Positions 1 through 1,709 of a stretch of DNA of 52,509 bases are shown here, piece by piece. Each line of letters begins with the position of its first letter. Position 1 is the stretch's first letter. The position numbers and the translations under genes were made by a program. The notes beneath the pieces are model-generated. The model made no database searches, was not told where the DNA came from, and worked only from the letters and a program-made list of their open reading frames with translations. This DNA comes from Bacilli bacterium (GTDB lineage: Bacteria > Bacillota_I > Bacilli_A > RF39 > UBA660): assembly GCA_017617435.1 (NCBI GenBank), contig JAFZWF010000021.1:1-52509 (forward strand), read 5' to 3'.

Positions 1-257
1 CGACCTTGACGGTCAAACTCACACTCAGCAGCTCCTGAGAAAAATGATCTGATGAAAGTACGTGCGTCTTTCTTAGTAAATGGTAATTTTTTTAGTTTAT
101 CAACGATATTATTCCACTCAGAAATTGAGTAAGCATATAAACACTTCTCAAGACCACGTGTAATAATGAAACGTTCACCAAGTTCAAGTCTGAACTTGTT
201 TGGTATAACTAATCTGCCTTTTTCATCAATATTATGATGAAACTCGCCCATGAACAT
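1..257 (-). CDS. mraZ: MraZ division/cell-wall cluster transcriptional regulator (5' part, runs off the window)
   Basis: Manual translation from ATG at 257: [23 protein letters not shown]...[12 protein letters not shown]...ECEFDRQGR, with two DxxGR motifs; not in the ORF track. Confidence 0.95.
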
Positions 258-266
258 TGAAATCCC

Positions 267-300
267 CCACTTTCTTCCACTATCTGCCACTGTCTACCAC
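267..300 (-). promoter_or_regulatory. MraZ binding repeats (four GTGG at 10-bp spacing)
   Basis: Plus strand CCAC ends at 270, 280, 290 and 300; minus strand reads GTGG-N6 x4, directly upstream of mraZ. Confidence 0.85.
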
Positions 301-330: not shown

Positions 331-353
331 TAGAAAAATGTTAATTTCTTTAC

Positions 354-387
354 AAAATAAAAAAACTTTACACATGTTGTAAAGTTT
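354..387 (-). terminator. Intrinsic terminator after the CptN-like gene
   Basis: Inverted repeat AAACTTTACA/TGTAAAGTTT with a T-rich tail on the minus strand. Confidence 0.7.
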
Positions 388-392
388 ATATA

Positions 393-874
393 TTAACTAG
401 TTGTTGATAACTTTTCATTCTTTATATTCTTTAGAATTTTATTTATATCAACTAAAAAAAGATTTTTACCCTTCTTCCTCATTGCAAACATTAGCACTAA
501 TTTATCTTCAATTTCTTTAGCAGTTTTACTTATAACTTTAGCAGGAATACCATTATTCATTAAATGTTGATGGTCTATAAAATCTATAGTACATGGGAAA
601 GCATTTTGAAGTAAAATTGCTGTTTCCTTTCCAAGAACTTTTCTAATCAAAATTGTATCGCATAATCCATACTTATATATTTTATTATTTATAATTTTTT
701 TGTACTTATCAATTTTACTACTTAGAGGAACAAACCATAAAATACTCCCATCTACAATTGCTAAATAAAGAGGTCTTTTACCTTTTCCTTTATGATTTCG
801 CATTAAACTTTTGTCATCATACAATTAAAAAAATCATCTTTTATATGGTACAAGAATCCATTAGAAACGTTCAT
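393..874 (-). pseudogene. Type III toxin-antitoxin CptN-family endoribonuclease toxin, frameshifted near codon 17
   Basis: ORF 393..824 has RPLY...LWFVPLSSKIDKYKKI...CDTI...AILLQNAFP, matching CptN motifs. The family-like N-terminus MNVSNGFLYHIKDDFF starts at ATG 874 behind RBS GAGGTG but lies in another frame, 1 nt short at 824-826. Confidence 0.8.
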
Positions 875-898
875 AATAACACCTCAAGTTGCTATTAT

Positions 899-942
899 AA
901 AAAACAAAAAAGGAAAATTCTGTCGCATTTTAGAATTTTCCT
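899..942 (-). terminator. Intrinsic terminator between the putative antitoxin RNA and the toxin gene
   Basis: Stem AGGAAAATTCT (911-921) / AGAATTTTCCT (932-942) followed by a long U tract on the minus strand. Confidence 0.85.
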
Positions 943-969
943 CTCTTTGTTGAAAAAAATTTCAACATA

Positions 970-1023
970 TCCTCGTCCGGAATAATTTATTACTCGCACC
1001 ATCCGGGAGCGAGATAATTTATT
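970..1023 (-). ncRNA. Putative CptI-like pseudoknot antitoxin RNA (single unit)
   Basis: GC-rich patch. Minus strand stem 1 CUCGC(1013-1009)/GCGAG(997-993); loop CCGGA(1006-1002) pairs with UCCGG(981-977); A-rich linker UAAUAAAU; lies upstream of a terminator and a CptN-like gene. Confidence 0.65.
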
Positions 1024-1033
1024 TTATAAAGAA

Positions 1034-1222
1034 TTATTTTTCTTCTTTTTCAACTTTAACTACTTCTACGTTTTTGTAATATCCACATTTTGGACATGCT
1101 CTATGAGGTCTTACAGTTGCACCACATTTAGGGCAAGTTGTTAAAGCTCCTACTTCTTTCTTTAAATGAGTACGACGCATTCTCTTTTTAGTTTTACTAG
1201 TTCTTCTAAAAGGTACTGCCAT
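1034..1222 (-). CDS. rpmF: 50S ribosomal protein L32 (zinc-ribbon form)
   Basis: MAVPFRRTSKTKKRMRRTH...CPKCG...HRACPKCGYY; start moved to ATG 1222 behind RBS AAGGAG. Confidence 0.97.
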   Translation of the reverse strand: MAVPFRRTSKTKKRMRRTHLKKEVGALTTCPKCGATVRPHRACPKCGYYKNVEVVKVEKEEK

Positions 1223-1226
1223 GATA

Positions 1227-1709
1227 TCACTCCTTCCCTTCATCAAGTAGCTTACTAAGTTCAGCTAATCTTGGATCTATCTTATTTTCTTCTTCATTAT
1301 TAAGCTCCCAACCTTCACCGGAAAGATGAGCATCTTTTTCTTTCGTAATTGAAATCGGAACTTCCAATACAATATTTTGCCATAAAATCGGCATAATATC
1401 AAGTATATTTTTGCTATTTTGATAATATTCCTTAATATCTTCATTAGATTCGCTAATTATTTCATTAATGTTGATAGAATATGGGTAATCTATTGGATCA
1501 AGCGTAATACTATCTTCAAGCACCATAATACCTTCTACATCTAAATCAAGTTCTATTTCATCCGATACATTATAGAATATCTTTCCATCAACTTTTATAG
1601 GTTTTAGTTCTTTTATAGATGTATTTTTATATAGTTCTTCATCAATTGTTAATAACTCATTAATATTAATAGTTCCATTTATATTAAGTTTATTTAAATC
1701 TATCTGCAT
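1227..1709 (-). CDS. YceD/DUF177 (YlbN-like) protein
   Basis: C-terminal IDPRLAEL and ILWQNIVLEVP motifs; conserved position upstream of rpmF. Confidence 0.9.
   Translation of the reverse strand: MQIDLNKLNINGTININELLTIDEELYKNTSIKELKPIKVDGKIFYNVSDEIELDLDVEGIMVLEDSITLDPIDYPYSININEIISESNEDIKEYYQNSKNILDIMPILWQNIVLEVPISITKEKDAHLSGEGWELNNEEENKIDPRLAELSKLLDEGKE

Follow-up and report, generated by a model that had tools for sequence, protein, structure and literature searches.

The window analyzed here is contig JAFZWF010000021.1 (52,509 nucleotides, nt), one of the 24 contigs of a 927-kb metagenome-assembled genome of a Bacilli bacterium that is 71% complete. Close to its start, between the ylbN-rpmF gene pair and mraZ, lies a fragment of a cptIN locus, i.e., a toxin-antitoxin system of type III with a toxin gene (cptN) and an RNA antitoxin (CptI). 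All features of the locus are on the minus strand and are collected in Table 1. A preliminary description of the window had already recognized a cptIN-type locus with, in order, the rpmF stop codon, a spacer of about 20 nt, a single H-type pseudoknot unit, a small hairpin (967-948), a strong terminator and then a gene bearing CptN motifs. Both the identity and the order were borne out by the CptN profile match and the CptI model match reported below, and the first pseudoknot stem was found to begin at 1013, 20 nt past the rpmF stop. The preliminary description further proposed that the antitoxin may be cut from the mRNA of ribosomal protein L32, tying neutralization of the toxin to ribosomal-protein transcription; this proposal is taken up below.

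Table 1. Features of the cptIN locus and of the host genes around it (window coordinates).
Feature	Position	Strand	Basis or remark
ylbN/yceD (DUF177)	1227..1709	-	Pfam YceD PF02620, E 6.3e-11; first gene of the ylbN-rpmF pair
rpmF (ribosomal protein L32)	1034..1222	-	Pfam Ribosomal_L32p, E 6.6e-23; stop TAA 1036-1034
Inserted cptIN fragment, 623 bp	409..1031	-	408->1032 joint in X3/X4 contigs; uninterrupted site in 4/4 same-genus genomes
CptI antitoxin unit, single, H-type pseudoknot	970..1020	-	Covariance model match 1022-961; stem covariation
Small AU-rich hairpin between CptI unit and terminator	948..967	-	8-nt arms, 100% complementary; RNA fold
Intrinsic terminator between cptI and cptN	894..947	-	16-bp stem and U-run; inverted-repeat, terminator and fold analyses
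Ribosome-binding site GAGGTG ahead of cptN	885-880	-	
cptN 5' piece	803..874	-	ATG at 874; 23 codons, reading MNVSNGFLYHIKDDFF before the frame is lost; stop 805-803
cptN frameshift site	824..826	-	One base fewer than relatives, in the codon following the FF motif
cptN main frame, 143 codons, open	393..824	-	CptN family; profile and structure-database matches
Ancestral rpmF terminator, AAACTTTACA...TGTAAAGTTT and T-run	356..386 (approx.)	-	Same hairpin directly 3' of rpmF in 4/4 same-genus genomes
mraZ, next host gene	3..290	-	Pfam MraZ, E 1e-22; extends past the window start

The toxin gene was identified by profile search. The 143-residue frame matched the NCBIfam equivalog NF047359 (type III toxin-antitoxin system CptIN family toxin) with an E value of 2.1e-36 and 125 bits, against a cut-off of 90, and a whole-genome search that ran across the break in the gene gave a match to model positions 7-149 that contains stops and scores 130.6 bits. 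The sole solved relative found was CptN in Protein Data Bank (PDB) entry 4RMO (E 2.6e-14). No Pfam family, ToxN_toxin included, was matched by the 143-residue frame at E values up to 1, and no PADLOC model matched it. The preliminary description had proposed comparing the frame-repaired protein with CptN and ToxN profiles, and it was the CptN family that was found, through both NF047359 and 4RMO. Only one cptN match was present in the assembly.

The RNA upstream of cptN folds into two stems, S1 (CUCGC at 1013-1009 with GCGAG at 997-993) and S2 (CCGGA at 1006-1002 with UCCGG at 981-977), with an A-rich loop L2 at 992-982. The unit ends given in Table 1 are predicted from the CptI unit of E. rectale; that unit, as given in the primer table of Rao 2015 (PMC4627078), occurs letter for letter in locus L016, and the boundaries of the CptI units are therefore anchored by analogy. 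A covariance model (R1) was built from 28 CptI units of relatives. It matched 1022-961 with 66.3 bits (E 5e-15), the sole match in the 927-kb assembly, and the unit of the window aligned readily with those of the relatives. Across 26 distinct units, 93.5% of the cells in S1 and S2 were paired; when the 3' partners were slid by 1-3 columns as a control, pairing dropped to 30-47.5%. Compensatory changes on both sides were seen at eight of the ten stem pairs, including all five of S2, and the observed covariation score was reached by none of 500 shuffles. A single H-type pseudoknot RNA, as first described, is thus supported by one model match with paired stems, and both stems covary in the comparison across relatives that the preliminary description had called for. 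An alternative nested fold, in which CUCG pairs with a 3' CGAG, was rejected: its outer helix was paired in 67.3% of cases, compared with 90% for S1, and it also failed at column 11, where U-to-C changes occur without compensation. Rfam returned only sub-threshold, microRNA-like matches, all on the terminator hairpin.

The core of the unit is closely conserved. A run of 38 consecutive nt (window 1014-977) is identical to repeat 1 of locus L001 (L001:2756-2793), and yet the CptN proteins of the two loci are only 51% identical. The second repeat of L001 differs from its first. The shared stretch suggests either that the RNA is strongly constrained or that the RNA part of the locus was recently exchanged. 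The flanks of the window unit depart from the clade consensus, with AAAUUAU in place of AAAUGUU on the 5' side and GAUAUGUU in place of AAAAUGUU on the 3' side. The CG dinucleotide of S1 (alignment columns 12-13, window 1011-1010) and a CG in the 3' tail (columns 51-52, window 975-974) have the capacity to pair, the respective counts being 26 and 24 of the 26 units; these could mark an alternative or intermolecular contact, or could merely be conserved sequence.

In related loci, of which 18 came from species genomes and more from same-family genomes, cptN is preceded by a promoter, by two units in tandem, each 45-52 nt long, and by a terminator. The window locus is simpler. Tandem Repeats Finder reported no tandem repeat at the CptI locus, and with filters off model R1 gave no further minus-strand match between 850 and 1250, while arrays in the relatives contain two units in 21 of 22 cases, the remaining one (L026) having a single unit. 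Two candidates for a second unit were examined. A 23-nt direct repeat with 74% identity was discarded, as it consists of AAUAAAUUAU, present once in the 5' flank and again in loop L2, and model R1 gives one match only. For the hairpin at 967-948 as a decayed second repeat there was a weak pairwise alignment, and no such claim is made; an ATGTT-GAAA sequence at this hairpin resembles the sequence 3' of the last unit in L006, L015 and L020.

The promoter of the relatives is also missing. A strict pattern (TTGAC[AT]-N16-18-TAnnnT) was sought ahead of the first unit in 28 arrays; it was found in 20, and a looser form was found in five more. Neither form was matched in the window, in L026 or in L039, the latter two being degenerate single-unit loci, and a general promoter scan of the minus strand gave no promoter-like site between 1374 and 956. 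The earlier statement that no convincing dedicated promoter is visible therefore holds under both the general scan and the pattern of the relatives. It had also been stated that no terminator separates rpmF from the RNA, and this was confirmed: the ancestral rpmF terminator now lies past cptN (approximately 386-356), and the first terminator that rpmF transcripts would meet is the one between cptI and cptN, with arms of 16 nt each (947-932 and 921-906) followed by a U-run. The fold of 1033-895, which takes in this terminator, was more stable than that of shuffled sequences (z = -5.47). In L007, L008 and L026, a second consensus-like promoter (TTGACT...TATAAT) lies between the cptI terminator and cptN, and the toxin of these loci may be independent of terminator read-through.

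The origin of this arrangement was sought by comparison with uninterrupted sites. Four genomes of the same genus encode an L32 that is 95-98% identical to that of the window, and in all four the rpmF stop is followed by 20-30 nt, the terminator hairpin and mraZ, with nothing else between. Neither cptN nor a CptI unit was found in any of the four. The preliminary description had named an occurrence of the RNA past rpmF in relatives without the toxin as evidence against a toxin-antitoxin locus; in these four toxin-less genomes the RNA is absent from that place. Within the family, cptN was found in four of 36 genomes. Contigs of two other samples (X3 and X4) also carry an empty site, in which 408 is joined to 1032 and 623 nt are skipped, with a depth at the joint of 10.9 in X3 and 3.4 in X4, the sides of the X4 contig being 64 and 69 nt. 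Compared with the window, these contigs show 9 differences in 64 positions and 2 in 69, and are therefore taken to come from a related organism rather than the same population. Other joints in this region (315->1032, 518->1278, 740->825, 1057->1271, 1126->1204 and 1237->1353) were set aside as belonging to other organisms, on account of short sides or undefined intervening sequence and of alignment at a likeness of 85%.

The insert so defined (623 base pairs, bp) has a 2-nt TT ambiguity at its junction. It starts 18 nt before S1, downstream of the position of the promoter and leader in the relatives, with the rpmF stop 2 nt further upstream, and contains from 5' to 3' the 18-nt leader, one CptI unit, the hairpin, the terminator and, behind its ribosome-binding site, a cptN that lacks the final codons. 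It ends within the last codons of cptN, whose own stop is absent; the final five codons and stop that are now read (LSTTS-stop, 408-393) are the spacer between rpmF and its terminator in the host, recognizable in the related genome G002. The ancestral terminator was thereby displaced 623 bp downstream. The GC content of the insert (26.5%) matches that of the window (26.4%). L32 was not found nearby in any of 36 related loci, some of which overlap. The locus is accordingly a fragment captured on a single occasion and not an arrangement that is conserved. When a closer relative or a donor was sought, the highest identity was 51% in species genomes and, over the full length, 50% in metagenome contigs; a search of phage sequences gave no match, and a search of plasmids gave four weak matches (37-42% identical).

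The captured toxin gene is broken. The frame that opens at the ATG at 874 ends after 23 codons, and the homologous frame opens at 824, right after a TAA. Relatives read K-D-D/E-F-F-D-I/V-V-N-D at this point; the window reads K-D-D-F-F-N, after which the homologous frame continues one base short, the loss falling in codon 18 of cptN. The N-terminal block of the 5' piece aligns with the GYLYHIKDxFF block of the relatives, and tblastn with an intact relative gave a match with an in-frame stop. The break implied by the earlier wording 'frame-repaired' is therefore real and amounts to one missing base at 826-824. Contigs of 756 nt from X3 and X4 match window 345-1100 with no differences and no gaps, and no indel at 824-826 was seen in contigs of any sample run compared. 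As the same sequence was assembled in two other samples, the break is not an error of this assembly, with the qualification that X3 and X4 share a study with the likely source sample and are not fully independent. Programmed frameshifting or transcriptional slippage in the U7 run was considered and rejected, since the -1 frame meets the TAA at 827-825. Neither the in-frame TTG at 824 nor the ATG at 803 is preceded by a Shine-Dalgarno sequence, and a product started at either would be without the conserved N-terminal block.

These observations are best explained if a promoterless cptIN fragment was captured in the 3' untranslated region (UTR) of rpmF and its toxin was recently inactivated, leaving a disabled relic rather than a working toxin-antitoxin pair; we give this reading a probability of roughly 0.6. 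Illegitimate recombination would have placed the 623-bp piece 2 nt past the rpmF stop and upstream of the original rpmF terminator, bringing one CptI unit, the cptI-cptN terminator and a cptN without its last codons, and no promoter. As there is no stop to transcription before the cassette terminator, any rpmF transcript would run through the CptI unit, and read-through from rpmF into CptI in this sense follows from the sequence. The ylbN-rpmF mRNA, now ending at the cassette terminator, would then be the sole source of CptI, as its 3' UTR, and cptN would be reached only by read-through of that terminator. Loss of the base at codon 18 would leave a 23-residue peptide and no full-length toxin, a loss that was probably tolerated or selected, as we infer that a promoterless, single-unit supply of antitoxin would have been unable to balance the toxin. 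Contigs from two RNA libraries of different studies (X19 and X20) contained the rpmF of relatives and tandem cptI-like sequence only; none bridged rpmF and cptI of the window locus, and they are hence silent on its expression. The tandem cptI-like contigs in these libraries align at window 1014-973 (joints that go back 42 nt) and do not represent the window locus; related CptI arrays may thus be present in gut RNA libraries, with carry-over of DNA a possible source.

The proposal that the antitoxin is cut from the L32 mRNA is consequently upheld in part. The architecture on which it was based stands, with neither a recognizable promoter nor a terminator between rpmF and the RNA. The tie between toxin neutralization and L32 transcription is not supported: the insert is truncated at both ends, the arrangement is unique to this genome and cptN is frameshifted at codon 18, and with no full-length toxin there is nothing whose neutralization could be tied to L32 transcription. 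Judged from the sequence, the coupling stems from an accidental insertion and bears on a toxin that is dead; it is a matter of architecture and not a working function.

Several observations weigh against a dead relic. Apart from the missing base, none of the 21 nearly invariant CptN columns has been lost (19 in the main frame and two in the N-terminal block), and a frame of 143 codons is open, which has a probability of about 1e-5 in random sequence of equal composition. The inactivation is therefore recent, or the frame is still under selection; on this evidence the break looks recent. A -1 slip of tRNA-Lys on A-AAA-G (812-808) could regain the correct frame before the stop, and a second cptN may lie in the unassembled part of the genome, given the completeness of 71%. 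On the RNA side, the core is perfectly conserved with repeat 1 of L001 (38 of 38 nt), and a -10-like sequence (TATAAAAT) at 1028-1021 is a possible weak promoter in an AT-rich organism. A single repeat of E. rectale CptI with its processing flanks, when overexpressed, is reported to be fully antitoxic (Rao 2015, PMC4627078), so the possession of one unit is not in itself decay.

In a rival reading, which we consider unlikely, the toxin is dead and CptI is kept as useful: made constantly in the tail of the abundant rpmF mRNA, such an orphan antitoxin would neutralize a matching CptN, arriving on mobile elements or encoded by an unassembled copy in the genome, in an anti-addiction or immunity role. 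Its support, beside the intact core shared with L001 across toxins that are only 51% identical, comes from the relatives. When 24 loci, including the window, were scored for cptN, 18 were full length without stops, two were cut by contig ends and four were broken. The cptN of L001 has a nonsense codon at position 29 (L001:3028-3030); that of L044, a close relative of L001, has a different nonsense codon (approximately 1540); that of L021 has one in-frame TAA; that of L026, which has a single CptI unit, lies in pieces in different frames; and in L052 the C-terminal part has been replaced by unrelated sequence. The cptI array was thus kept while cptN was independently inactivated in L001, L021, L026, L044 and L052, and decay of cptN is evidently common in this group. 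Persistence of the arrays in L001, L021, L044 and L052 favors an orphan role, but it may reflect no more than the youth of the breaks.

Arrays that lack a toxin altogether point the same way. Model R1 matched five of the 36 same-family genomes, in each case without a cptN match: G015 (L035), G027 (L036), G023 (L037), G007 (L038) and G031 (L039). Two of these arrays match the strict promoter pattern and two the loose one, and a terminator is present in all five; L037 combines a single CptI unit with a consensus promoter. The genes next to them are unrelated, that beside L038 being the housekeeping gene ddl. The proteins encoded downstream in L035-L037 (304, 383 and 191 residues) matched no Pfam family, and these arrays may have a different partner. 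The combination of toxin-less arrays and broken toxins keeps it conceivable that the RNA of the window was retained for its own sake. In addition, one repeat is reported to suffice for antitoxicity in E. coli (Rao 2015, PMC4627078).

In G020, an intact cptN with a cptI array upstream of it is directly followed on its 3' side by a second two-unit array (L020:1282-1393, minus strand, contig 22), whose promoter fits the loose pattern only. The same genome has two further cptN matches, one intact (L025) and one broken (L026).

Against an orphan role in the window stand the departure of the unit flanks from the clade consensus, the fact that the sole cptN match in the assembly is the window's own, and the expectation that without active CptN the unit is not cut from the mRNA. 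CptI-CptN pairs are, moreover, reported to be cognate-specific (Rao 2015, PMC4627078). Orphan type III RNA antitoxins on chromosomes were not found in the literature searched, including the 2016 review of type III systems, in which the word 'orphan' does not occur. The broader form of the idea is more doubtful still: that CptI, seated within the L32 mRNA's 3' UTR, has been turned into an immunity RNA without a toxin, as one case of a wider and undescribed habit, among small-genome gut Bacilli, of keeping orphan type III antitoxin RNAs once the toxin is lost or broken, to disarm the CptN of incoming mobile elements or phages.

A separate question bears on transcription alone and can be combined with each of the functional readings. 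CptI may be driven independently of rpmF by a weak promoter of its own, consisting of the -10-like TATAAAAT alone, 8-15 nt upstream of S1; this sequence is similar to the -10 region of L001 (CATAAAAT). Small-genome, AT-rich Bacilli can use promoters dominated by the -10 element. Yet the site has no -35 element at a distance of 16-18 nt and no TG extension, it was passed over by the consensus scan and by both the strict and the loose clade patterns, and a start there would leave hardly any 5' flank for processing. Strings of A and T of this kind are also common at 26% GC, and a dedicated promoter is improbable.

It is very unlikely that the locus is a working pair, as the preliminary description had it. 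On this reading some CptN would still be made, through the -1 slip at 812-808 or as a shortened product from TTG 824 or ATG 803, and would be restrained by CptI released from the mRNA of L32, such that a drop in ribosomal-protein transcription would free the toxin. The 143 open codons with all nearly invariant residues kept, and an architecture that forces co-transcription with rpmF, would fit such a pair. So would the intact internal terminator, an element that sets the antitoxin:toxin ratio in type III systems (Blower 2012, PMC3401426), and the same work leaves open whether partial CptN proteins are toxic. But TTG 824 and ATG 803 lack a Shine-Dalgarno sequence, a product shortened in this way would lose the GYLYHIKDxFF block that is home to two of the nearly invariant columns, and a slip in the U7 run meets the TAA at 827-825 immediately. 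For a slip on A-AAA-G no stimulator is evident, and five residues would be replaced by it; the locus as a whole is a one-off accident with truncated ends. Finally, an assembly artefact, i.e., a chimeric join or a false indel, is conceivable in a metagenome-assembled genome in 24 contigs with 71% completeness, but can practically be dismissed, as the separately assembled 756-nt contigs (X3 and X4) span the sequences on both sides of the junctions, the unit and the frameshift without a difference and no compared run has an indel at 824-826, the shared study of X3 and X4 with the likely source sample being the caveat.

The disabled-relic reading places the window among known type III systems as follows. 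It belongs to the same toxin family as CptIN of E. rectale (PDB 4RMO; family, Blower et al. 2012; structure, Rao et al. 2015), with the same order of RNA, terminator and toxin. In both, the RNA is a two-stem H-type pseudoknot with a long A-rich loop L2 that shares the motif AUAAAU; the CptI of E. rectale is reported as a 45-nt pseudoknot to which two genetic repeats contribute (Rao 2015, PMC4627078). The window retains the Ser-Ser-basic triad, as PLSSK compared with PLSSR in 4RMO. The residues that give 4RMO its specificity (D81, S85 and Y104) correspond in the window to a gap, T and H, and H is found throughout the Bacilli clade. The unit period also differs, being 45 nt in E. rectale and 49-52 nt in this clade. 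The screen of Blower 2012 (PMC3401426), which required a tandem array, reports 33 cptIN loci with 1.9-3.4 repeats of 40-48 nt, preferentially with a -35/-10 promoter of their own upstream of the repeats; in the window there is a single unit, an own promoter is missing, the locus sits within the rpmF transcription unit and the toxin is frameshifted. Loci with partial toxins, in Bryantella formatexigens and others, are already listed there, and they likewise have a degenerate or shortened cptN beside a retained RNA and terminator (Blower et al. 2012, PMC3401426). Full sets of tandem repeats are reported for those loci, whereas the window has a single unit without a promoter and a visible cause of decay, namely a one-base deletion and a truncated insertion. 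Phage resistance was not conferred by either of the two cptIN loci tried in E. coli (Blower 2012, PMC3401426, Table 3).

ToxIN of Pectobacterium atrosepticum (plasmid pECA1039) shares the logic of type III systems, in that an endoribonuclease toxin cuts its own repeat RNA into units that bind and block the toxin, with a terminator between RNA and toxin gene setting the ratio (Blower 2012, PMC3401426; Goeders 2016). It differs in toxin family and RNA fold, in its hexameric complex and in its proven abortive infection. The ToxIN array has 5.5 repeats. Its repeat unit is 36 nt long (Rao 2015, PMC4627078). Phage pseudo-ToxI and orphan (anti-addiction) antitoxins are a parallel for an antitoxin without a toxin, which could neutralize a matching toxin in trans, as the CptI unit might; phage TE escapes ToxIN through ToxI-like repeats (Goeders 2016 review). 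Type II orphan antitoxins are proteins, unlike the CptI RNA. The earlier model of a structured RNA freed from an mRNA tail also resembles the small RNAs derived from 3' UTRs. These RNAs, of which CpxQ is one, are cut from mRNAs, are released by RNase E and act by base pairing; in the window, release would need CptN, which is broken.

The window locus is thus a degenerate variant of a known system, and should be annotated as a cptN pseudogene with one CptI unit and not as a new regulatory circuit. It offers a natural example of a type III cassette in which the supply of antitoxin is reduced, to one unit on borrowed transcription, and the toxin breaks. The wider pattern in this family, of repeated and independent toxin knock-outs with the RNA kept and of promoter-bearing cptI arrays without a toxin, may matter more, and screens that demand a tandem array beside a toxin gene are blind to single-unit or toxin-less loci of this kind. 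If it is true that selection keeps these RNAs, type III antitoxins would be immunity elements in their own right.

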